From: Patescibacteria group bacterium
Lineage (GTDB): Bacteria > Patescibacteriota > Minisyncoccia > Phycocordibacterales > UBA9973
Direction: 5' to 3'
NCBI GenBank assembly: GCA_028865035.1
Contig: JAGWLB010000004.1
Location: 1,294-65,293 of the forward strand
DNA length: 64,000 nt
The notes under the pieces are model-generated. The model saw only the letters and a list, made by a program, of their open reading frames with translations, searched no databases and had not been told where the DNA came from. Positions 176-50,770 of this stretch are shown one piece after another (position 1 is the first letter of the stretch; each line of letters begins with the position of its first letter). The translations under genes and the position numbers were made by a program.

Positions 176-703
176 TTACAACTTAAGATATTTAAAAAGT
201 AATTCATATTCTTTTGGGCGTGACACAAAAGACGTATCTTTGCTATCTATAATTTTTTTTAACTCAACACCGGAAATATATTTCACTTCTGATACTTCTT
301 CTTCCTGTTTTTTAACATTGTTCAAATCTAAATCCATTCTAACTACATAGATAGGGTTTATTTCATTATTTATAAATCCTTTCCTTGCATATTTTTGTTG
401 TATTGTTCCGATAAGAATAAAATCCTCAGCAGAAAGTCCTAAACCTAGCTCTTCACTTGCCTCTCGTAAAGCAGCTGTTATATTATCTTCACCCGTAGAT
501 ACATGCCCTGCAACTGAAATATCCCATTTATTGGGATCGCTATCCATCAATGGAGATCTTTTTTGTATTAATAATTCATTCTTCGAGTTAATGATCCATA
601 TATGAACAGATCTATGCCAAAAACCTTTTTCATGAGCTTCATTCTTGGAAATTTTAATTCCGGTTAAATTTCCTTCCTCATCACACATATCTAAATATTC
701 CAT
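176..703 (-). CDS. NUDIX hydrolase (IDI/YfcD-like, lacks the Idi catalytic Cys)
   Basis: Nudix box GHVSTGEDNITAALREASEELGL (GX5EX7REUXEEXGU). HRSVHIWIIN...LLIQKRS pattern resembles type-1 IPP isomerase/YfcD but has Ala in place of the Cys. Confidence 0.75.
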   Translation of the reverse strand: MEYLDMCDEEGNLTGIKISKNEAHEKGFWHRSVHIWIINSKNELLIQKRSPLMDSDPNKWDISVAGHVSTGEDNITAALREASEELGLGLSAEDFILIGTIQQKYARKGFINNEINPIYVVRMDLDLNNVKKQEEEVSEVKYISGVELKKIIDSKDTSFVSRPKEYELLFKYLKL

Positions 704-30108: not shown

Positions 30109-31941
30109 TTAATCATTACCATTTTTCATCATTTTCAAGAATACATCATGAGAGATGTTTATTTTTGCTTGTGATTGCATTCTCTTTTTACCTTTCTTTT
30201 GCTTTTCTAATAGTTTCTTTTTACGACTAACGTCACCTCCTCCCACAACTTTACTACCATGCATAAGAACGTCTTTACGGAAAGATGACACTGACTCTGA
30301 AGCGATAATTCTACCTAAAGCTTTGCCTTGAATTTTAAATGCAAATTGTTGACGTGGGATGATTTTCTGCAATTTTTCTACTTGAGACCTGGCTTCTTCT
30401 TCTACTCGACGACGAGATACTACTCTTGTAAAAGCAATCATTGGTTCGTCAGCAACAATTATATCTAATCTTACAACATCAGCTTCTTTGTATTCTGATA
30501 TTTCATAAGATATCGATGCATAACCTGAAGTAATACTTTTTATATCATCAAAAAAGTTACGCATCAGTTCTCGCAAAGGCATAGTTAAATCAATGGATGA
30601 TCTATTATCTCCAAAATCTTCAGTCATTTCTACTTCAGCTTCATGATCATACAGGAAAGGCATAAGCTGACTCATATATATAGCTGGTGCAATAATTTTT
30701 ACATTAACCCACGGTTCAAATACTTTAGCTATATTGCCATCATCTGGAAAAAGATGTGGTGAATATATTATTTCTTCTTTGCCAGCTTGTCCAGATGGAC
30801 CACTACGCAATAATACTTTATATGTAATTGAAGGCATCGTAACTATAAGTTTTAAATCGAATTCACGATTTAATCTTTCTGTAATAATTTCAAGATGAAG
30901 CATTCCCAGGAAACCACATCGAAAACCTCGTCCTAAAGTACCTGAGGTCTCTTCTTCATATGAAAATGATGAATCAGACAAACGAAGTCGTCCTAAAGCA
31001 AGTTTAAGATTAGGAAAATCATCTTGGCTTTCAGGGTATATAGAAGCCCAAACAACTGGATAAGGTTTCATATAGCCTGGGAGTGCCTCCATAGGCTTCT
31101 TTGTGTAGGTTATAGTGTCCCCTACAGAAGCTATACCTGGCTTCTTAATACCAGTGACGATATAACCAATTTCTCCTGTACTTATACTGTCACGAGCTGT
31201 TTCTTCAGGTGAAAAAGTTCCAACTTCAAGTGAAATAAATTTTTCAGATGACACTGCAAAAAGAAGCGATTCCCCTTTTTTAAACATTCCATCTATTACA
31301 CGAACATAGACTATAACTCCACGATGATTATCATACTTGAAATCAAAAACTAAAGCTCTTCCAGACGAAGTATTTATTTCATTTTCTTTTGGAGCTGGAA
31401 TCCTTTTAACGATTTCATTTAGTAATTCTGATACACCTTGACCAGTTTTACCAGATACGCAAATAATACTATCTGGGTCAATATTAAGAAGAAGAGCTAC
31501 TTCCATTTTAACTTCGTCTATACGTGCAAGTGGTGAATCTATTTTAGAAATTACAGGTATAATTACTAACCCAGTATCACGTGCAAGTTGTAACGTTGTT
31601 AGAGTCTGTGCTTGTACACCTTGTGTAGCATCTACTAAAAGCAGAGATCCCTCCACAGCTTTCAAAGCTCTAGATACTTCATATGAGAAGTCTATGTGTC
31701 CCGGTGTATCTATTAGATTTAGAATATATTTATGCTCGTCGCATTCATATTCCATCCTAACTGGTTGCATCTTTATTGTAATACCACGTTCGCGTTCAAG
31801 ATCCATTGAGTCTAGAACCTGATTTTTCATCTTTCGCTTTTCAATAGTACCTGTGACTTCAAGCATACGGTCAGCCAGGGTTGATTTACCATGGTCAATA
31901 TGTGCAATTATTGAAAAATTTCTAATAGACTTAATATCCAT
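30109..31941 (-). CDS. lepA: elongation factor 4 (LepA)
   Basis: IRNFSIIAHIDHGKSTLADRML G-domain and the LepA-specific C-terminal domain. Confidence 0.9.
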   Translation of the reverse strand: MDIKSIRNFSIIAHIDHGKSTLADRMLEVTGTIEKRKMKNQVLDSMDLERERGITIKMQPVRMEYECDEHKYILNLIDTPGHIDFSYEVSRALKAVEGSLLLVDATQGVQAQTLTTLQLARDTGLVIIPVISKIDSPLARIDEVKMEVALLLNIDPDSIICVSGKTGQGVSELLNEIVKRIPAPKENEINTSSGRALVFDFKYDNHRGVIVYVRVIDGMFKKGESLLFAVSSEKFISLEVGTFSPEETARDSISTGEIGYIVTGIKKPGIASVGDTITYTKKPMEALPGYMKPYPVVWASIYPESQDDFPNLKLALGRLRLSDSSFSYEEETSGTLGRGFRCGFLGMLHLEIITERLNREFDLKLIVTMPSITYKVLLRSGPSGQAGKEEIIYSPHLFPDDGNIAKVFEPWVNVKIIAPAIYMSQLMPFLYDHEAEVEMTEDFGDNRSSIDLTMPLRELMRNFFDDIKSITSGYASISYEISEYKEADVVRLDIIVADEPMIAFTRVVSRRRVEEEARSQVEKLQKIIPRQQFAFKIQGKALGRIIASESVSSFRKDVLMHGSKVVGGGDVSRKKKLLEKQKKGKKRMQSQAKINISHDVFLKMMKNGND

Positions 31942-31985
31942 AAATCTATCCTACCAGAAAAGCATTGAAAATAAAAGGTTAAAAT

Positions 31986-33749
31986 TTATTCCATTATAAA
32001 ACCGCCAATTTGATGATTCCATAAATTGGCGTAATTGCCATTTTTAGATATAAGTTCATTATGAGTTCCTTCTTCCGAAATTTTTCCATCTTCGAAAACA
32101 ATAATTCTATCCATTTTCTGAATTGTTGATAAACGATGAGCGATAACTATGGTTGTTTTACCATTCATAAGTTCATTGAAGGCCTGCTGTATGTATTGTT
32201 CACTTATACTATCTAGTGAACTAGTTGCTTCATCAAGAATCAAGATTGGTGCATCTTTTATCATCGCTCTAGCAATAGCTATACGTTGACGTTCACCGCC
32301 AGAGAGTTTTACACCTCGTTCACCAACATATGTATCATACTTATACGGTAACTTTTCTATAAACTCATGAGCATGCGCTTTCTTTGCTACTTCTTTTATT
32401 TCTTCTTCTGTTGCATTTAGTTTACCGTAGGCAATGTTCTCACGAATTGTTCTATGAAATAAGATAGACTCTTGTGGTACATAAGATATAGCACTTCTAA
32501 GATCATCCTGGGTAACAGATTTAATATTTTGACCATCTATAGTAATAGCACCTGAATCTACGTCTGAAAAACGTAAGATTAAATTTGTGAATGTTGATTT
32601 ACCAGCGCCAGAATGACCAACAATGCCAATACGCTCTCCTGGCTTGATATCAATATTGAAATTATTAAATACTTTTTGTCCATTTTTATAAGTAAAATTA
32701 ACATTACTAAAAACAAGATGGCCTTGTTTCATTTGTAAAATTTCTGGATTTTGGGGATCTAAAATATCAGGGATCACATTGAATATATCAATCATTTCTT
32801 TCATATCTGCGGCAGATTTCATAAATTTTGTCAGAGAATTACCAAGGTTCCAAAGCCTATCAAAAACAATAACCATATATGTCTGTATTAAAACAACTGT
32901 TCCTGTACTAATCTGATTTTTAATCCACAAAGTAATCATTAGATAAAGAATGGCACTTTGAATAATGAAAATAAATACACCCTGAATAATATCGATTCTT
33001 CCAGCAAAGAACCAAGCTTTTTTACTACGAATTGCACCTTCATCAGTGTATTCTTTAAATGAATCTACCTCATTTTTTCTTGCTGAAAAAAATTTCACGG
33101 CTAAAATATTACTAAAAACATCGGCAAGACGTCCGCTTATTTTCGAATCTTGTTCGGCTTCATATAAATCATATTTAATTTTCTTTTTAACGAAAAATGA
33201 AACAACAGATATATGAATAATTATCCAACTTATAAAAATAATGCTTATTATTAATGATTGTCGAGTTAATACATAAAAAACTCCAACTAAGATAATAAAA
33301 AAATTTAAAAAATCGTAAAGGAATATATCAAACATTGTTTCAAAAGCACCTACAAAACGTCGAGATTTTGTCACTAAACTTCCAGCAAAAGTATTCGTAA
33401 AAAATGTTGGGGAATGATTTTCGATTTTCTGGAAAGCATAGTTACGCAACATACGCATTACGTTTATCTCAAATGAGTAATAAACAAATTTAAATATTCT
33501 AGCAAGCAATAAAGCAATAATACTTATACCGATAATAATAAAAACAACATTCATAAGGCTATGTGCTAGAAGAATATGATTTATATTTGTAGTAGAAAGA
33601 ATATCTATAATTTTCTTAAAATACAGAGGTCTTAGAATATTTTCTAAAAAAACCCTAAGACTAAATGCTATTATTATGACATAAAAAGCAGATGCATATT
33701 TACGCATCTGTGGCCAGATATATTTAAAGATATCTCCAAATAAAGACAT
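31986..33749 (-). CDS. ABC transporter, fused permease/ATPase exporter (MsbA-like)
   Basis: Six-TM N-terminal half. Walker A GHSGAGKST, signature LSGGERQR, Walker B ILILDEATS. Confidence 0.85.
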   Translation of the reverse strand: MSLFGDIFKYIWPQMRKYASAFYVIIIAFSLRVFLENILRPLYFKKIIDILSTTNINHILLAHSLMNVVFIIIGISIIALLLARIFKFVYYSFEINVMRMLRNYAFQKIENHSPTFFTNTFAGSLVTKSRRFVGAFETMFDIFLYDFLNFFIILVGVFYVLTRQSLIISIIFISWIIIHISVVSFFVKKKIKYDLYEAEQDSKISGRLADVFSNILAVKFFSARKNEVDSFKEYTDEGAIRSKKAWFFAGRIDIIQGVFIFIIQSAILYLMITLWIKNQISTGTVVLIQTYMVIVFDRLWNLGNSLTKFMKSAADMKEMIDIFNVIPDILDPQNPEILQMKQGHLVFSNVNFTYKNGQKVFNNFNIDIKPGERIGIVGHSGAGKSTFTNLILRFSDVDSGAITIDGQNIKSVTQDDLRSAISYVPQESILFHRTIRENIAYGKLNATEEEIKEVAKKAHAHEFIEKLPYKYDTYVGERGVKLSGGERQRIAIARAMIKDAPILILDEATSSLDSISEQYIQQAFNELMNGKTTIVIAHRLSTIQKMDRIIVFEDGKISEEGTHNELISKNGNYANLWNHQIGGFIME

Positions 33750-33791
33750 TGTTTTATACTATCAGAAAAGCATTGAAAATAAAAGGTTTTA

Positions 33792-35480
33792 TTATAATTC
33801 TTTTTGTTCTGGGGCAAGAACACGGCCACGCCAGAATTTATGACTTAGAGCACGAGCAAGATCAGATAACTCTTTGTTTTTCATCATAGCCAAAGCAAAT
33901 ACTCCAAAACTAATACCTATAATTCCCGATAAAAATCCTTGTAAAAATACCCCACGTCCAGTAGTAAGTCCAAAGATATCATCAAAATACGATAGAGCAA
34001 AATAAGTAACTACCCCCATAATAAGAGCACTAATAGTACTTTGCATAAACGTTTTAAATAATTTAAGTGAACGATTGCGTAAGAATTCTCTTCTAAATAA
34101 AAACCATATTAAGAAAAAATTCAAAAGTGAACCAAGAGCGTAAGCAAGTGGTAAAGCAAGCATTATAGTCCCGGGGACGCCTTGTACGCGAAGAAGATTT
34201 TCTAAACTCAATAGAACGTTTGGATATACAAGGAATATGTGGATGAAAAAATAAGCTAAAACAATTATCATTCCTGAAGAAAAAACATTCACCAATAAAG
34301 GTCTTTTAGTGTTTCCAGCAGCATAATAGCCTCGAACAAATAATAAAACTAGACTCTGTGATGCAAGTGAAATAATAAATAATGCAGCGGCAGCTGCAGT
34401 TAATCTTGTGTCAAACCAAGAAAAAGTATTAGAGCCAAGCACGACACGCACAATCTGTGCACGCAGAACAACAATAAGAACAATGACAGGTAGTGACCAG
34501 AATATAATTTGTCTAGCAGCAAGTATTATCTGATTAATAAAACCTTCCATATCTTTTACAGAGAATGATTTTACTAAAACAGGAAAAGCAGCAACTGAAT
34601 ATGAAATACCAATAATACCCACAGGCACTGACTGCAAATTATATGAAAAAGTAAATAAGGAAATTGATCCTGCTTTGAGAGTCGAAGCCATAGCAATAAG
34701 AGTAATGAAAGCTAAGCTATTACAGGATAAAGTAAATGTTCGTGGAGCTGATAATTTCACGACATTATATATCTCTTTCCAATCAATATGAGAGACGAAC
34801 TTTGGGAAAAATCCATGTTTTATAACAGTTGGTACTTGTATTGATAAATGCATTATTGCACCTATTATTACTCCTACCGCTAGACCGTAGACACCCATAT
34901 ATGGATATATAAATATAATTCCTGTAAGAATTCCAATATTGTAAAATATGGGAGACAAAGAAAAAATAAAGAAATTCCTAAATAGCTGAGTTATAGTGCC
35001 GATTAGATTTGATAAACCAATAAATATAGGCGAAAGTAGCATAATCCGACTCGTGGTTATTAATAGTTTAGTTTGTGTTTCAGAAAAACCGGGAGCTATA
35101 AAATGTGCAACATACGGCATAAGAATAGCAATGATAACACTAATACCAACCATAAATAACATATATGCAGTAAAAATATTATTAAGAAACTTACGAGCTT
35201 GATCTGATCCATCTTTATCTGAATGTATTTTATCAACAAGGAATGGTAGCAAAACTGTGATAGAAGCAAGTGAAGCAATAGATATATACAAGAAATCAGG
35301 TATTCGAAATGCCGCGTAATAAATATCAAGCATCGGACCTGCACCAACTATATGAGCAAGTGTTCTATCGCGAAGTAAACCTAATAACTGAGAAATAAAA
35401 GCAAAACTACCAAGAAGCAATGCGGCTTCGTTCACTCCCGTGAACTCCTTATTTAAGAATGTCAGTATTTTCTTAACCAT
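33792..35480 (-). CDS. murJ: lipid II flippase MurJ (MviN)
   Basis: About 14 TM helices. N-terminal LLGLLRDRTLAHIVGAGPMLDIYYAAFRIPDFLY. Confidence 0.8.
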   Translation of the reverse strand: MVKKILTFLNKEFTGVNEAALLLGSFAFISQLLGLLRDRTLAHIVGAGPMLDIYYAAFRIPDFLYISIASLASITVLLPFLVDKIHSDKDGSDQARKFLNNIFTAYMLFMVGISVIIAILMPYVAHFIAPGFSETQTKLLITTSRIMLLSPIFIGLSNLIGTITQLFRNFFIFSLSPIFYNIGILTGIIFIYPYMGVYGLAVGVIIGAIMHLSIQVPTVIKHGFFPKFVSHIDWKEIYNVVKLSAPRTFTLSCNSLAFITLIAMASTLKAGSISLFTFSYNLQSVPVGIIGISYSVAAFPVLVKSFSVKDMEGFINQIILAARQIIFWSLPVIVLIVVLRAQIVRVVLGSNTFSWFDTRLTAAAAALFIISLASQSLVLLFVRGYYAAGNTKRPLLVNVFSSGMIIVLAYFFIHIFLVYPNVLLSLENLLRVQGVPGTIMLALPLAYALGSLLNFFLIWFLFRREFLRNRSLKLFKTFMQSTISALIMGVVTYFALSYFDDIFGLTTGRGVFLQGFLSGIIGISFGVFALAMMKNKELSDLARALSHKFWRGRVLAPEQKEL

Positions 35481-35493
35481 TTAAACTACATTA

Positions 35494-37866
35494 TTAATGC
35501 TGAACTGGTAATGGTAGTTTTTGTGCTTTGGTTGTTGTATTTGTACTAGTTTTAAGATTTGTTGGTGGAGTTGTATTACTACTTGAAGATGGATTTGAGA
35601 TTGAATTTATAGCATCTTTAACATCCTGATTATCAGGCAAAGCTTGGCTTAGTAATTTAAATTGTGCCATTGCATCATCTGTACGTCCTACTTTTTTATA
35701 TGACTGACCAAGTAAGAAATGGGCATTTACATTACTTGGGTCAAGAGATATTGACTGTTCGAAAGCACTAATAGCTCCTTGGTAATCAGAATTATTATAA
35801 CGCAACAATCCAAGCTTAAAGAATACGGTAGGATCATTCGGTGCCGCTTGGCTAGCATTTTCTGCGTCAGCGATAGCTGCTGTTGGATTTCCTTCGTCAG
35901 TCTCAATCTGCGCAAGCAAGAACATAGCATCAGTGTAGTTAGGCTTTATTGCTAAAGCATTTGCTATGTATTTACGGGCTTCATCATTGCTTTTATTGGC
36001 AATTTCAAGTGAAGCACGTAATAAGGCTATCGATGGATTATTCGGTGCTAGAGCTTGAGCTTTGTTATAGTTTATGACAGCATTTTCATAACTATTTTGT
36101 ACAGATAAAGGTAATAGAGAGCTATCAATGTTACCTAGATTAACATAGTTCTGATATTGATTTGGGTTTTGATTGATTGCTAACTGTGCCGATTGTTGAG
36201 CAAGACTTACAAGCTGCTGGATATTTGATTTTAAAGTGTCTTTCGAAATAGTTTTATCGTTCAACATTACACTCATCTCGGCCAAATATATTTGAGAAAT
36301 AGTTCGATAATAAATATCATTCTGATCAAGCAATAATGCATTTGACAACATTTTCTCAGATTTAGAAAGAGAAGCTAAATCAGTTGCATTACTTGTAGAA
36401 CCTTTAGAGAAGTAAATGATAGAAGCAAATTTTTCAGCATAAACATAAGTAGTAGAAAGAGTAATCATCATTAGAACCATAAGCCCTAAGATAGAAAAGA
36501 AGCTATTACGTGGATCGCCTAAGAATGAAAAACTTCTAACTTTTATCGATTGATGGTAAACCAATATACCAATAATCATTCCACTTGAGATGAAAGCAAT
36601 AACGAACATAATTATATTAGGAGTATAGAATATTATTGTCGTCCACGAATAAATTGCTGTCATTAGCGCTGTCATAGTAAAGTAATTTGAAAGTGAATTA
36701 CGTAATACTTTATTCAAAGATTTAATACCTCTTAATAGAACAGTAACAAGGAAAAGTAACCAAGCAAAAATACCTAGCAATCCAGTAGTTACTGCAAATG
36801 TAAGCAGTGAACTGTAACCATTTGAAAAATCTATATTCCAAAACTGAGATTGTGCAATTGCTTTTGGTTGCCAAAGAGCCCAATCTAAATTAAATGTATT
36901 TGGTCCAGTACCAAGTAATGGATTATGCTTTATGGCTTTAAGAGCAATCTCTGATGTTGTTGTGATAAGTGGACGAACACTAGTATTAGGAACATTAATG
37001 TATCTAGTTATTAATCCACCAATAGAATTATTCCCAACCAAGAAAATCAAACATATAAATACAACAATAAGTGCGGTAAATGGAAACTTCTTTTTATTAT
37101 CACTATCATGAATAATATTTATTCCCGCTTGTTGAATTGAGATACTGTAAACAAAGATAATTATGGAAAACAAACCAACCATTACCCAAACAAGTGGTAG
37201 ATTAATAATAATAAGGAAGAATAACCCTACTACTAATAAGAAATACTGCATTACTAGGAAAAGTCCTTTATTTTTTAGAAATTCTATTGTAAATAAAGAC
37301 AGTAAAACAATTAAACCAAAAAACAAAACGAAATCATTCCAACTACCCACTAAATTACCTGATGAAATACCATTAAGTAAACCAGGGGCAAAACGTCCAA
37401 AACCAACAAATATATTTATGAGTTCGAAAACAGCTAATATAACTGCTCCCAAAAACATAACTCGATAGAAAGACCACAAACGTCTTTCAGTTTGAAAATA
37501 AATAGAAGATAAGAAAAAAAGTATGAACAAAACAAGTACAGAACCAAAAGTACCTATTTCAAAACCGCTACCGAATAGAGATACATATTTAGAAGATGAG
37601 AAGAATGATGAAATCAAAAAAACAATTGGTATTAGGGATGCAAATATTATTATCTTATCTTTTGGTATTAAAAATTTTCCTTCACCAAGACGTGCAATTA
37701 ACCAAAAGAATAGCGCTAAAGTCATACCTATAGACACAAGAAATCCTTTGCTTGCATCTAGAGTAACAGGAATATATGGTATAAAGAAAAACAAAGATAT
37801 GAATAATGTTGCTAAAATAGTAGTAAATGATAATTTATTAAAAAATTCAACTTTTTTTGATTCCAT
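35494..37866 (-). CDS. O-antigen ligase-like (Wzy_C) polytopic membrane protein with C-terminal TPR repeats
   Basis: About 12 TM helices followed by a soluble TPR-like region (AIADAENASQAAPNDPTVFFKLGLLRYNNSDYQGAISAFEQSISLDPSN). Confidence 0.5.
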   Translation of the reverse strand: MESKKVEFFNKLSFTTILATLFISLFFFIPYIPVTLDASKGFLVSIGMTLALFFWLIARLGEGKFLIPKDKIIIFASLIPIVFLISSFFSSSKYVSLFGSGFEIGTFGSVLVLFILFFLSSIYFQTERRLWSFYRVMFLGAVILAVFELINIFVGFGRFAPGLLNGISSGNLVGSWNDFVLFFGLIVLLSLFTIEFLKNKGLFLVMQYFLLVVGLFFLIIINLPLVWVMVGLFSIIIFVYSISIQQAGINIIHDSDNKKKFPFTALIVVFICLIFLVGNNSIGGLITRYINVPNTSVRPLITTTSEIALKAIKHNPLLGTGPNTFNLDWALWQPKAIAQSQFWNIDFSNGYSSLLTFAVTTGLLGIFAWLLFLVTVLLRGIKSLNKVLRNSLSNYFTMTALMTAIYSWTTIIFYTPNIIMFVIAFISSGMIIGILVYHQSIKVRSFSFLGDPRNSFFSILGLMVLMMITLSTTYVYAEKFASIIYFSKGSTSNATDLASLSKSEKMLSNALLLDQNDIYYRTISQIYLAEMSVMLNDKTISKDTLKSNIQQLVSLAQQSAQLAINQNPNQYQNYVNLGNIDSSLLPLSVQNSYENAVINYNKAQALAPNNPSIALLRASLEIANKSNDEARKYIANALAIKPNYTDAMFLLAQIETDEGNPTAAIADAENASQAAPNDPTVFFKLGLLRYNNSDYQGAISAFEQSISLDPSNVNAHFLLGQSYKKVGRTDDAMAQFKLLSQALPDNQDVKDAINSISNPSSSSNTTPPTNLKTSTNTTTKAQKLPLPVQH

Positions 37867-37921: not shown

Positions 37922-40756
37922 CTAGACAACTATATTTAGTAATCTGTTTTTTACATAAATAATACGCTTGATTTCTTTATCTTTAATCCATGGTAAAACA
38001 ACACTATTCTTCAGAGCTATATTTTTAATTTCTTCTTCGCTTGTATCAGCATCAACAAGCAATTCAGTTCTAACTTTGCCGTTTACTTGTACTACAATTT
38101 TTGTAGTTTCTTCTGCTATTAACTTATTGTTACATTTTGGCCATTTACTTTTGTGTATAGATTCTTTTTCACCTAAGCTATGCCAAATTTCTTCTGTTAT
38201 ATGCGGAGCAAAAGGTGCAAGTAATTGTAAGAAAATTTTGTAATCATTTTTAGAAATTGTATCAACCCTATCCCATTCATTGAGAACCATCATCATCTGT
38301 GCGATAGCTGTATTAAATTTATATTGTTCTATATCATCAGTTATTTTTTTAATTGATTTGTTTATAAATTTTTCAGATGAAGTATTAGAATTTTTATCTA
38401 TTCTAAAAGAAACTTTCCATACTCTCTCCAGGAACCTATGAACTCCCACCACTCCATTGGGATCCCAGGGATAATTAACTGTGACACCGTACGGACCCAT
38501 AAAAGCAAGATACATACGTACAGTATCTGCTCCAAGTCGATCCACAATCTCATCTGGGTTAATAACATTACCTTTAGATTTACTCATCTTATTGCCATCT
38601 GGGCCTAAAATAAGTCCTCTATTCCTTCTTATCTTATAGCTTTCATTTTCTTTAACTAATTTCAAACTATGAAGTGCTTTGACCCAAAAGCGTGAATACA
38701 AAAGATGCATGGTCGTATGTTCTGCGCCACCCATATATAAATCTATAGGCATCCAAGCATTACGATGCTTTACATCTGAAAATGTTTTCTTATTTTTATT
38801 ATCTAAATATCGATAAAAGTACCATGATGAATCTACGAATGTATCCATAGTCTCAACTTCAGGTTTCCATCCTTTACCAAAAATCTTTTCAGTTCTTTTA
38901 AATAATTCCTTACTTCTAGCAAGTGGAGCTGTACCGTCTGGTGTATGATCCACATCGGTAGGTAAAATCCACGGTAAATATTTGTCTGGTATAGGGTGAG
39001 CTTTACCTTTAGGATCGTAAACTATGGGTATAGGTGTGCCCCAGTATCGCTGTCTCGAAATCCCCCAATCACGTAGTCTATAAGTATTTACTATTTTTCC
39101 ACCAACCTCTTTTGTAATCTTTACCCTTGCTTCTTCTGAAGTTAAATCATTAAACTTTTCAGAATTAATTAAAACACCTTCTTCTAATAAACAAAAGTTT
39201 TGCTTTAATACCCTATCCCATATAGTTGGATCAACAAGATTATTCTTTAATACAGCTTCTAATTCTTTACTATAAACCCAATCAAATCCATGCATCTGTT
39301 TTTCTTTTTCTGCTATAGCCTCTTGTTCATCATTATCTAAAACAAAATACAAGCCTTGTTGTATGTCATCCCTATTTTGGTTTTTCCCTGGTGCAAAAAA
39401 CTTTACCTTAAATGGTGCACCGATTAAATATTTAAAAGACAAATTTTTATATCCTGTTTCTTCTAACACTTCACGCTTTGCCGCAGAAACAATATCTTCA
39501 TTATCTTCTATACCACCACTAATAAAAGTCTTCCAACCAAAAGAATTCCAAGTTAGTATTAAATATTTGTCTTCACTCCAATGCTTTACTACTGCTCTTA
39601 TGACTCTTCTTTTATTTAAAGGCAATCCTGGACGCATTGACATCTCTGGCCTTGTATCTATTTTCTCTTCTGCAATGACGTACTTTATTGGCAAGTTATA
39701 TTTCTGTGCAAATTCGAAATCTCTCTCATCGTGGGCAGGTACGGCCATAACTGCTCCAGTTCCATAGCCAGCTAAAACATAGTCAGCTATCCATACAGGA
39801 ACTTCTTCCCCATTGGCTGGATTTATAGCTTTGATACCTTCTAGTTCTACTCCTGTTTTTTCTTTAGATTGTTTACGGTCAAGCTCGGATTTCTTTTTAG
39901 TATCTGAAATATATTTCTCTACTTCTTTTTTATTTTTAATTTCTCTTATTAAATCATTTACGAGTTGGTGTTCTGGCGCAAGAACCAAGTACGTTACACC
40001 AAAGAGAGTATCAGCACGTGTAGTGAATACTTTTACTTTTTGTCCCGTAGATAACTTGAAAGTAATCTCACTTCCCTCACTTCTTCCGATCCAGTTTTTC
40101 TGTGATGTTTTTATTTCTTCAGGCCAATCTAATTTATCTAGATCGTCTATTAGTTTATCTGCATATTTAGTGATACGGAGCATCCATTGCTCTTGGTCGC
40201 GTTGTATTACTTCGGCACCACAACGTTCACAACGCCCATCTACAACTTGTTCATTAGCGAGAATAGTCTGATCTTTTGGGCACCAGTTAACTTTTGTTGC
40301 ATTACGGTAAACAAGGTCTTTTTTTAAGAATTGGTTAAACATCCATTGAGTCCATTTATAATACTCTGGATCGCACGATACGACCTCTCTATCCCAGTCA
40401 AACACAGCACCCATAGAGCGTAGTTGCATACGCATTTTGTCCATCTGCTTATATGTCCATATTTTAGGATCAGCACCTAGCTTAATAGCAGCATTCTCAG
40501 CTGGTAGACCAAAAGCATCAAAACCCATAGGGTAAAGCACGTTAAAACCTTGCATTCGTTTGTAGCGCGCAAAAATATCTGGTACTGCAAAAGCATACCA
40601 GTGACCCACATGGAGATTACCAGAAGGATAAGTAAATTCAACTAACTCATAGAAATTCTTTTTCCCTTTTACATTATCTTTGACTTTATAGAGTTTTTTA
40701 TCTTCCCACTCTTTCTGCCATTTTTTTTCAATTTTCTTATGATTATATTCTTTCAT
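37922..40756 (-). CDS. leuS: leucyl-tRNA synthetase with an inserted NUDIX hydrolase domain
   Basis: HVGHWYAFAVPDI (HIGH), KMSKSKGN. CP1 editing motifs TTRADTLFGVTYLVLAPEH and GTGAVMAVPAHDERDFEFA. After CP1 there is a ~140-aa insertion with Nudix box GGIEDNEDIVSAAKREVLEETG (residues ~380-520). Confidence 0.85.
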   Translation of the reverse strand: MKEYNHKKIEKKWQKEWEDKKLYKVKDNVKGKKNFYELVEFTYPSGNLHVGHWYAFAVPDIFARYKRMQGFNVLYPMGFDAFGLPAENAAIKLGADPKIWTYKQMDKMRMQLRSMGAVFDWDREVVSCDPEYYKWTQWMFNQFLKKDLVYRNATKVNWCPKDQTILANEQVVDGRCERCGAEVIQRDQEQWMLRITKYADKLIDDLDKLDWPEEIKTSQKNWIGRSEGSEITFKLSTGQKVKVFTTRADTLFGVTYLVLAPEHQLVNDLIREIKNKKEVEKYISDTKKKSELDRKQSKEKTGVELEGIKAINPANGEEVPVWIADYVLAGYGTGAVMAVPAHDERDFEFAQKYNLPIKYVIAEEKIDTRPEMSMRPGLPLNKRRVIRAVVKHWSEDKYLILTWNSFGWKTFISGGIEDNEDIVSAAKREVLEETGYKNLSFKYLIGAPFKVKFFAPGKNQNRDDIQQGLYFVLDNDEQEAIAEKEKQMHGFDWVYSKELEAVLKNNLVDPTIWDRVLKQNFCLLEEGVLINSEKFNDLTSEEARVKITKEVGGKIVNTYRLRDWGISRQRYWGTPIPIVYDPKGKAHPIPDKYLPWILPTDVDHTPDGTAPLARSKELFKRTEKIFGKGWKPEVETMDTFVDSSWYFYRYLDNKNKKTFSDVKHRNAWMPIDLYMGGAEHTTMHLLYSRFWVKALHSLKLVKENESYKIRRNRGLILGPDGNKMSKSKGNVINPDEIVDRLGADTVRMYLAFMGPYGVTVNYPWDPNGVVGVHRFLERVWKVSFRIDKNSNTSSEKFINKSIKKITDDIEQYKFNTAIAQMMMVLNEWDRVDTISKNDYKIFLQLLAPFAPHITEEIWHSLGEKESIHKSKWPKCNNKLIAEETTKIVVQVNGKVRTELLVDADTSEEEIKNIALKNSVVLPWIKDKEIKRIIYVKNRLLNIVV
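39197..39619 (-). other. NUDIX-fold insertion domain within LeuRS
   Basis: RVIRAVVKHW...GGIEDNEDIVSAAKREVLEETGY...GLYFVL. E. coli LeuRS has only ~30 aa at the equivalent position. Confidence 0.6.
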
Positions 40757-41396: not shown

Positions 41397-41972
41397 TCAT
41401 ATTTTAACTGCTCCTTTACGCAAAACAATAAGCTTGTGATTAGTGTACTTCACTAAAGTCGAAGGCTTGGCTACCCTAGATCCACTGTTTATATATAAAT
41501 CAATTTTATCACCAAAATACATTTTAGCTTCATTGATATTTTTAGCCGGTTGAAGTCCTTGAGGGTTTGCACTCGGTGCAACAAGTGGACCAACTTTATT
41601 TATTAGATTAAATAAATTTTTATTTTTCTTTCCAATCATACGAAAAGCTATGGTATTAGTACCTCTGTGTAAATATGATAATTTCTTTTGCGAGCAAGAT
41701 AGCACGACACTTATTTGTCCTGGCCAAACTTTATCTAAAAATTCTTTTTGCTCTTCAGACAAGAAAATGCCAAGCTTTATTATCTGTGTAAATGATGACA
41801 CTAAAATAATAAATGGTTTATTTTCATCACGCCCTTTTAATTTATATATTCGACTAACTGCTTTTTTATAATGTGCGCTGGCTATGACACCATAAATGGT
41901 ATCAGTCGGAGCAACTATTACCCCGTCTTTTTTTAAAATATTTACTGCTTTATTCCAAAGTCCACTAATCAT
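41397..41972 (-). CDS. tsaC: L-threonylcarbamoyladenylate synthase TsaC (YrdC domain)
   Basis: VIVAPTDTIYGVIASA and KGRDENKPFIILVSS, the YrdC/Sua5 signature. Confidence 0.8.
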   Translation of the reverse strand: MISGLWNKAVNILKKDGVIVAPTDTIYGVIASAHYKKAVSRIYKLKGRDENKPFIILVSSFTQIIKLGIFLSEEQKEFLDKVWPGQISVVLSCSQKKLSYLHRGTNTIAFRMIGKKNKNLFNLINKVGPLVAPSANPQGLQPAKNINEAKMYFGDKIDLYINSGSRVAKPSTLVKYTNHKLIVLRKGAVKI

Positions 41973-42294
41973 GTTTGTCTATTTTCGCTGCCATAATAAA
42001 ATCATTCTGTGATAATCCTCCTATGGCATGAGTCGAAAGATTTATATTTACATATTTATAATCAACTAAATGAATATCTGGATGGTGGCCCTCAGTTTTT
42101 GCAATATCTCCGACTTTGTTTACAAACTCTAGGGCTTGATCAAAATTTTTAAATTCATAATGCTTGCTTATTGACTTAGCATCATTAGATATTACCCATC
42201 CTGGAATCTGTTTTAATAATATTTCAGCCTCTTCTTTGTTAAAGGGTATGACGTTCCCCTCGCAAGCTACACATTTTTGTTCAGTTAAATTCAT
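41965..42294 (-). CDS. pterin-4-alpha-carbinolamine dehydratase (PCD/DCoH). Start trimmed to MNLTEQK.
   Basis: EGHHPDI catalytic signature. Confidence 0.7.
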   Translation of the reverse strand: MNLTEQKCVACEGNVIPFNKEEAEILLKQIPGWVISNDAKSISKHYEFKNFDQALEFVNKVGDIAKTEGHHPDIHLVDYKYVNINLSTHAIGGLSQNDFIMAAKIDKHD

Positions 42295-42400
42295 GAGTTT
42301 AATTATACAATACAAATTGTAAAATATAATCATATTTGACTAAAATAGCTTTTTATATTATTATGAAAAAAACATTTTTTCAATCAAAAAAGAATATCAA

Positions 42401-50686: not shown

Positions 50687-50688
50687 TG

Positions 50689-50770
50689 TGCCGGAGGAGA
50701 GACTTGAACTCTCATCCCTTGCGAGACGCGATTTTGAGTCGCGCGCGTATACCAATTCCGCCACTCCGGC
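50689..50770 (-). tRNA. tRNA-Leu (anticodon CAA), long variable arm
   Basis: Reverse complement is GCCGGAGTGGCGGAATTGGTATACGCGCGCGACTCAAAATCGCGTCTCGCAAGGGATGAGAGTTCAAGTCTCTCCTCCGGCA. Confidence 0.85.

Follow-up and report, generated by a model that had tools for sequence, protein, structure and literature searches.

A Nudix hydrolase domain predicted within the editing domain of a patescibacterial leucyl-tRNA synthetase, at a site that varies between close strains

The 64,000-nucleotide stretch of DNA analyzed here (the window) is part of contig JAGWLB010000004.1 of a Patescibacteria group bacterium (assembly GCA_028865035.1). Its minus strand carries a leuS gene for a leucyl-tRNA synthetase (LeuRS) in which a Nudix hydrolase domain is predicted to lie within CP1, the editing domain. 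A preliminary description of the window, made from the letters alone, had drawn attention to this insertion. The features of the locus on which our argument depends are the following; residue numbers are those of the LeuRS, referred to as the query.

37922..40756, minus strand: leuS open reading frame, 944 amino acids, a bacterial-type LeuRS with a nested Nudix domain
40601..40612, minus strand: HIGH signature, HVGH, residues 49-52, from the translation; invariant in 42 homologues
39647..40099, minus strand: N-terminal part of the CP1 editing domain, PF13603, residues 220-370 (profile positions 1-149 of 185)
40025..40072, minus strand: site A, the CP1 hairpin loop SEITFKLSTGQKVKVF past residue 235, empty in the query
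40007..40024, minus strand: threonine-rich editing motif TTRADT, residues 245-250, from the translation
39719..39736, minus strand: editing motif AHDERD with the conserved Asp pair, residues 341-346, from the translation; invariant
39185..39670, minus strand: site B cassette (the insert), 162 amino acids, residues 363-524, in place of a CP1 loop of 15-18 amino acids
39254..39577, minus strand: Nudix domain PF00293, residues 394-501, from Pfam and Foldseek
39449..39517, minus strand: Nudix box GGIEDNEDIVSAAKREVLEETGY, residues 414-436, the metal-binding catalytic motif, from the translation
39083..39184, minus strand: C-terminal part of CP1 past the insert (EEGVLINS...VGGKIVNT), up to the YRLRDW return into the catalytic core
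38576..38590, minus strand: KMSKS signature, residues 723-727, with GPDGN just before it, where the leucine-specific domain would be
38033..38365, minus strand: anticodon-binding-type helical domain PF08264, residues 798-908, from Pfam

The synthetase around the insert appears to be whole. The leuS product scores 939.6 bits against the bacterial LeuRS model TIGR00396 (leuS_bact; cutoff, 548.4), in a match that the insert splits in two, and aligns with the Thermus thermophilus LeuRS at an E value of 2.4e-210; a Pfam scan of the 944-residue protein returns PF13603 (218.8 bits), PF00133, PF08264, and PF00293. Among 42 full-length LeuRS proteins, T245, T246, R247, D249, and T250 of the TTRADT motif are invariant, as are M724, S725, K726, and S727 of KMSKS, and K723 is kept in at least 90%. 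Translation, TIGR00396, and Pfam all agree with the preliminary description that HIGH, KMSKS, and an intact CP1 domain are present. A model of the full-length protein (predicted local distance difference test score [pLDDT], 84.5, and 83-93 in the Nudix part; predicted template modeling score [pTM], 0.71) finds its top PDB matches in Escherichia coli LeuRS-tRNA complexes (template modeling score on the target [TMt], 0.81-0.82), and because these are its best matches, the LeuRS body seems to be undisturbed by the insertion. The homology to the solved T. thermophilus (1H3N/2BYT) and E. coli (4AQ7/3ZGZ) enzymes is full length, and the HIGH, KMSKS, and CP1 motifs and the anticodon-binding and C-terminal domains are all found in the query, which differs from both in having a Nudix domain for the short CP1 loop and in being without the leucine-specific domain. 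The latter has no counterpart, in that query residues 720-724 bridge T. thermophilus residues 581-638 in the alignment and the sequence there reads simply GPDGNKMSKS (38576..38602). The minimal LeuRS of Mycoplasma mobile (3ZIU) is described as having the tetrapeptide GKDG in place of the same domain (PMC3643597). The query resembles it in this respect, with GPDG before KMSKS; unlike the M. mobile enzyme, which is also without CP1, it keeps and expands CP1. Loss of the leucine-specific domain is known natural variation and is compatible with membership among the bacterial LeuRSs. Judged by its sequence, then, the protein is a housekeeping bacterial-type LeuRS with all of its synthetic and editing motifs intact. 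An identical protein in NCBI is annotated "class I tRNA ligase family protein."

The insert can be delimited by alignment to solved LeuRS structures: query residues 1-362 align with T. thermophilus residues 1-363, and query residues 525-720 align with residues 379-581. The net gain is about 145 amino acids late in CP1, in line with the insertion of about 140 first proposed, but the accompanying figure of roughly 30 residues at this point in E. coli was too high, since we count about 18 from IKPVI to GVLFNS. On the insert, PF00293, the profile once suggested for a check, scores 41.4 bits within the whole protein and 43.6 bits when the segment is excised (gathering score, 21.1), and the box that had been called canonical is an exact match to GX5EX7REUXEEXGU in the translation. 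An AlphaFold2 model of the insert, made with an alignment of 45 inserts, has a pLDDT of 94.2 and a pTM of 0.88. A Foldseek search with this model gives 549 PDB matches at E <= 0.001; every one of the 50 listed is a Nudix or MutT-type protein. Top matches are 2azw (E, 2.9e-9; TM scores, 0.70/0.78) and 3i7u (TMt, 0.81; root mean square deviation, 2.6); lower matches include NudI, RppH, MutT1/Rv2985, and ADP-ribose pyrophosphatases, with TM scores in the 0.7-0.8 range for Nudix-fold neighbors. A profile search of PDB sequences agrees, with 2azw at 1.2e-15. As modeled, the insert is a complete, independently folding Nudix hydrolase domain, an alpha/beta/alpha sandwich, nested in a CP1 loop, and its sequence makes it probably active as a hydrolase; it is not a known LeuRS-specific domain. 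It has the fold and the box of 2AZW (an uncharacterized Enterococcus faecalis MutT/nudix protein), 3I7U (the Aquifex diadenosine tetraphosphate [Ap4A] hydrolase), NudI, and RppH, but it is nested rather than free and only 14-23% identical to such stand-alone enzymes. No curated NCBIfam Nudix subfamily model or equivalog reaches its cutoff on the insert, the best being RppH, NudE, and NudB at about 18 bits.

The window holds a second Nudix gene, at 176..703 (minus strand), which encodes 175 amino acids with a canonical box of its own; its existence had been noted before, and PF00293 bears it out at 59.1 bits. Only the box aligns between this protein and the leuS insert (BLASTP E, 0.02), which rules out the insert as a recent duplicate of that gene.

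A survey of LeuRS sequences, which had been proposed as a check, led to two things absent from the preliminary description: such insertions are widespread in Patescibacteria, and they lie at a hypervariable site. The sequences compared come from metagenome assemblies. Of the 120 best LeuRS homologues, 65 have a Nudix domain at this site, 6 have a non-Nudix insert of 157-221 amino acids, and the rest have a spacer of 29-84 amino acids. When one genome per GTDB species was scanned with two peptide patterns from the insert, at least 238 relatives were found, a lower bound, in Nomura-, Taylor-, Kaiser-, Adler-, Vogel-, Jorgensen-, and Magasanikbacteria of the Parcubacteria/Paceibacteria and in CPR2. 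The Nudix match lies among LeuRS-coding segments (the N- and/or C-terminal halves) in 79 of the 80 best GTDB loci, 4 of these 79 having the Nudix domain upstream of the usual position, and in a LeuRS-free neighborhood in the remaining one. Likewise, a hidden Markov model search of 1.84 billion representatives yielded 181 clusters at E <= 1e-30; among the best 150, LeuRSs or fragments of them account for about 116, and single-domain proteins of 126-200 amino acids for about 24. Stand-alone members of the clade do exist, for example, a 165-amino-acid gene product encoded next to ftsZ in L070. An assembly or frameshift artifact is ruled out: the frame is continuous, dozens of independent homologues have the same architecture, and the two alleles of one discordant pair are each found on several contigs. 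Full-text literature searches gave no description of a LeuRS-Nudix architecture, in keeping with the earlier remark that no characterized fusion of this kind was known. The arrangement is thus real and common in Patescibacteria, and it is apparently undescribed.

Some records stand apart in this survey. L011 (a contig of 2.7 kb) and L013 (21.6 kb), labeled as DPANN archaea (Nanoarchaeota and Woesearchaeota), encode bacterial-type LeuRSs with a Nudix insert that are 72% identical to each other; the labels could reflect misbinning or gene transfer. Other records labeled "uncultured Gammaproteobacteria" or "Saccharibacteria" have a leuS that groups with Paceibacteria. In P0101, P0106, P0109, and other relatives of about 760 amino acids, 29 residues lead from AHD..FA to YRLRDW, with no insert and without the CP1-ending GxLxNS...VGGK.

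Is the inserted domain maintained as an enzyme? Mean identity is 31% among the inserts and 73% in the LeuRS core. Across this divergence, the 42 full-length proteins (42-45 sequences overall) all keep the box residues G414, E429, E432, E433, and G435, and at least 90% of them keep E420 and R428; in a wider census, 119 boxes are fully canonical and 13 more have the E..EE triad. Among six close pairs in which dS could be measured, the ratio of nonsynonymous to synonymous substitution (dN/dS) lies at 0.01-0.09 in five (L023/L025, with dN 0.015 and dS 1.2; L001/L002, 0.03; L041/L051, 0.07; L057/L058, 0.08; and L012/L020, 0.09); the sixth, L063/L071, is near identical (dS, 0.026) and has a ratio of 0.25. 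Because the box is invariant despite the divergence and dN/dS is low, the sequences argue that the insert is a functional protein module under strong purifying selection and very probably a catalytic one. Could the Nudix fold instead serve without catalysis, as a nucleotide sensor, a steric shield, or a modulator of CP1 movement? The box is degenerate in a few lineages (AEIQQE in P0013, and also L068), and unrelated inserts that do not look enzymatic occupy the same slot in some relatives. Yet the query box is perfect, and however far the sequences have diverged, the metal ligands do not vary; we give this idea next to no credence.

The most telling property of site B is how it behaves between close strains. 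Core and insert identities among LeuRSs are uncorrelated (Pearson r = 0.095), and there are pairs with cores 93-98% identical whose inserts are discordant: P0035, with a Nudix domain, and P0061, with an unrelated insert of 163 amino acids (core, 98%); P0013, with a Nudix domain, and P0051, with no insert (97%); P0052, with a Nudix domain, and P0095, with no insert (96%); and P0038 and P0062, both with Nudix domains, which are 32% identical to each other (core, 94%). The loci of the first pair, L081 and L084, are syntenic, with a DNA identity of 98.8% upstream and 96.1% downstream. Within leuS, their first 960 nucleotides are identical and are followed by about 500 unrelated nucleotides, 120 nucleotides at about 63% identity, and then a mosaic of 85-100%. 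Both alleles were assembled independently, in two and five contigs from different samples. In the second pair, L086, with a Nudix domain, and the complete 808-kb genome CP064958.1, with a 78-amino-acid spacer, are 98.4% identical over 12 kb outside the cassette region. The breakpoints are sharp and lie in or beside the conserved AHDERDFEFA and YRLRDWGISRQRYWG blocks. Strains with genomes about 98% identical thus carry the Nudix domain, another Nudix domain, an unrelated insert, or nothing at site B. From these sequences we infer that the cassette is replaced allelically by homologous recombination. Outside the cassette, too, leuS alternates between blocks of 100% and of 80-92% identity in strains that are about 98% identical (nucleotides 1741-2460 and 2641-2802 in L081 versus L084; nucleotides 241-480 and 1561-2160 in L086 versus L087), and because the diverged blocks interrupt identical ones in this way, the whole gene looks like a recombination hot spot. 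In a neighbor-joining tree of LeuRS cores, insert-bearing and insert-free proteins are interleaved; the sample is star-like, and therefore we relied on pairwise and DNA-level comparisons for the question of descent.

Variation of this kind invites comparison with mobile elements. Inteins and homing elements also lie in frame in conserved essential genes, are present in one strain and absent from its close relative, and have diverged flanks. In such a scenario, the cassette would be selfish, persisting because its imprecise loss from an essential gene is lethal and spreading by co-conversion with little benefit to the host. The presence or absence of the insert within species, the diverged flanking tracts that resemble co-conversion, the DUF559 or restriction-endonuclease-like cassettes at site A in some relatives, and the choice of conserved essential genes as hosts (LeuRS and prolyl-tRNA synthetase [ProRS]) would all fit. 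An intein in the strict sense is rejected, however: a Pfam scan of the 944-residue protein at E <= 0.1 gives none of the Hint, intein, or homing-endonuclease families, and the junctions, VIA|EEK and LL|EEG, have no splice-junction residues. Unlike inteins, the insert has a catalytic motif of its own that appears to be under selection, and the invariant box and the low dN/dS in five of six pairs point to selection on enzymatic function. Nor are there flanking or terminal repeats beyond chance, and the composition is like that of the host gene (GC content of 0.32 versus 0.35 for the rest of the gene, with matching third codon positions); recent foreign acquisition in this genome is likewise unsupported. 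We regard a purely selfish cassette as very improbable.

Site B is not the only slot. At site A, relatives of the query have cassettes of 83-200 amino acids that include DUF559 (117 bits), ASCH, Ser_hydrolase or alpha/beta-hydrolase, and Ham1 domains and the same Nudix clade; the Nudix domains of P0057 at site A and of P0026 at site B share 60% identity. Taken over the CP1 loops, the repertoire comprises DUF559, ASCH, Ser_hydrolase, Ham1, HAD, and folds that we could not assign. P0092, a LeuRS of 1,376 amino acids, has a Ham1 (ITPase-like) domain at site A and Nudix and HAD_2 domains at site B, all of them nucleotide or phosphoester hydrolase folds. The non-Nudix inserts at site B, of 157-221 amino acids, fall into the types P0060/P0077 and P0061/P0063/P0103, neither of which has a Pfam or PADLOC match, together with P0110, which has a weak nucleotidyltransferase-like match under the cutoff; a homologue search with an unassigned non-Nudix cassette gave no matches. 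We therefore view CP1 of patescibacterial LeuRS as a vehicle whose two or three permissive loops accept small hydrolase domains.

A repertoire made up almost entirely of hydrolases, with turnover at the strain level and allelic replacement reminiscent of loci under diversifying selection, raises the question of whether these cassettes protect the synthetase. They might destroy nucleotide antibiotics that mimic an aminoacyl-adenylate and are aimed at the synthetase, or they might reverse modifications that toxins make at the tRNA 3' end, to which CP1 binds. GNATs detoxify adenylate-mimicking compounds in microcin C immunity. A GNAT domain is joined to IleRS in the NCBIfam family NF040702 (ileS_w_GNAT), which is likewise a class Ia synthetase with an extra small-molecule enzyme domain, although with another fold and in another host synthetase (the query scores 91 bits against its cutoff of 1999). 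LeuRS itself, according to PDB entry descriptions, is a target of a natural nucleotide toxin, agrocin 84 (TM84; 3zgz), whose producers keep a resistant LeuRS, AgnB2 (5ah5). Against such a role, the acidic surface of the Nudix domain speaks against direct tRNA binding, and the PADLOC models of known anti-phage defense proteins match neither the Nudix insert nor four other cassettes. We know of no toxin or antibiotic for these organisms, and to our knowledge Nudix enzymes do not cleave acyl-phosphoramidate or sulfamoyl adenylate mimics. We consider protection of this kind quite unlikely. In its most general form, the idea would be that CP1 loops, and occasionally other synthetases such as ProRS, are slots shuffled by recombination in which each cassette neutralizes a different antagonist of the synthetase or its tRNA. 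This is a long shot in our judgment; if it were true, cassette diversity among strains would mirror an arms race, and the slots would represent a new kind of target-embedded immunity.

We favor another proposal, which we hold to be probable as a whole: the Nudix domain is a nested, selected, accessory enzyme that is tethered to LeuRS and exchanged between lineages by recombination. In this model, a surface loop late in CP1 carries a Nudix domain for which the synthetase would serve as a tether. The domain, by its sequence, would be a Mg2+-dependent pyrophosphohydrolase acting on its own on small nucleoside-diphosphate-X compounds. Our best guess at its substrates is dinucleoside polyphosphates (ApnA/NpnN) or aberrant nucleotides. 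The mosaics suggest that lineages exchange the cassette together with some of the CP1 sequence beside it and that AHDERDFEFA and YRLRDWGISRQRYWG may act as homology arms. Because near-identical strains lack the Nudix domain or replace it at the same position, it is an accessory module rather than an obligatory step of leucylation or editing.

As for the substrate, ApnA arise mainly as side products of aminoacyl-tRNA synthetases (PMC4734340), and Ap4A hydrolases are also found among the structural neighbors of the insert; both points make dinucleoside polyphosphates attractive as candidates. The co-occurring Ham1 and HAD cassettes suggest nucleotide "house-cleaning" just as much. A marker of Ap4A hydrolases is an aromatic residue (Tyr) about 16-18 residues past the Nudix box. 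About 17-18 residues past the box, the family consensus has F-Y and the query has F-F, and Ap4A hydrolases are present but not dominant among the structural matches. The insert has a net charge of -9, within a range of -5 to -16 across inserts, and because inserts are so strongly acidic, an RNA substrate is disfavored; we consider an RppH-like activity directed at RNA ends unlikely.

Several observations sit less comfortably with an autonomous accessory enzyme on a passive carrier, and they are best weighed together. No one class clearly wins out among the structural neighbors, which include Ap4A hydrolases, NTPases, RppH, and ADP-ribose pyrophosphatases; the box is degenerate in a few lineages; and the evidence for recombination consists of mosaics in two strain pairs. 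Further, the near confinement of the clade to LeuRS (79 of 80 loci and about 116 of the best 150 clusters) hints at a tighter link to aminoacyl-tRNA synthetases than passive carriage would require. The clade occurs at two different CP1 loops, and some LeuRSs have three Nudix boxes (P0124, P0125, and P0134) or two (P0126, P0130, and P0068), with the copies in tandem in one loop and/or divided over both; the two copies in P0068 are just 32% identical. In P0273 (L088 2906..4837; JGI 3300036940), a complete ProRS of the archaeal/eukaryote type has the clade's Nudix domain nested between its anticodon-binding and C-terminal domains, and there are proteins of 230-280 amino acids in which this Nudix domain is joined to a piece resembling the ProRS anticodon-binding domain.

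Might the Nudix domain, then, be wired into LeuRS chemistry, much as the preliminary description suggested with its built-in proofreading or alarmone-clearing module, and hydrolyze Ap4A, other ApnA, or another adenylate-derived by-product at its source, with selection acting in favor of the fusion itself? The confinement to LeuRS, the recurrence at two loops, in two or three copies, and in ProRS, and the synthetase origin of ApnA all favor such integral coupling, as do the Aquifex, human, and Plasmodium Ap4A hydrolases and the Thermus Ap6A hydrolase among the structural neighbors. On the other hand, near-identical strains are without the Nudix domain or have unrelated folds at site B, and stand-alone members of the clade exist. 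An aminoacyl-adenylate is not a nucleoside diphosphate derivative and would be an atypical Nudix substrate in terms of established Nudix chemistry. Finally, P0273 is the sole representative of its kind seen, a metagenome scan for further ProRS-Nudix genes having given just four stand-alone relatives. On balance, we think integral coupling unlikely; the near-exclusive residence of the clade in synthetases nonetheless keeps a looser functional link alive within our preferred proposal of an accessory, tethered enzyme.

The surroundings of leuS are conserved in part. The order leuS-TPR-murJ-lepA, in which TPR is a large membrane protein with tetratricopeptide repeats, is common to the window (30865..37866, minus strand) and distant relatives that include L081, L083, and L086. 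Between murJ and lepA, L081 has one more gene, for a nucleoside 2-deoxyribosyltransferase, that is missing from its sister L083 (96-99% identical). Just upstream of leuS, two genes, one of the Sua5/YrdC family (PF01300) and one for a pterin-4a-carbinolamine dehydratase (PF01329), overlap by 8 nucleotides (the pair at 41397..42333, minus strand); between this pair and leuS is a gene for a 185-amino-acid membrane protein without a Pfam match. One of the seven tRNA genes in the window, at 50688..50770 (minus strand), encodes an 83-nucleotide tRNA-Leu(CAA), a natural substrate for this LeuRS.

It is well known that aminoacyl-tRNA synthetases can bear extra domains, which are mostly terminal appendages in eukaryotes. 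The union of a synthetase with an added enzyme domain is therefore not new in itself; what is apparently new is a strain-variable cassette, probably shuffled by recombination, in the editing domain. The proposal raises several questions. What is the substrate of the tethered Nudix domain? Are ApnA, or nucleotide antibiotics, handled at the source? And how does an essential, highly conserved gene come to carry accessory enzymes, exchanged by recombination, in tiny genomes? There are practical sides as well: the CP1 loops tolerate insertions in nature and could serve as sites for engineering, and the genes now go by the name "class I tRNA ligase family protein." Above all, these LeuRSs would have a second complete enzyme inside a bacterial proofreading domain, one that appears to be kept under strong selection in hundreds of species and is nonetheless swapped between strains of a single species.

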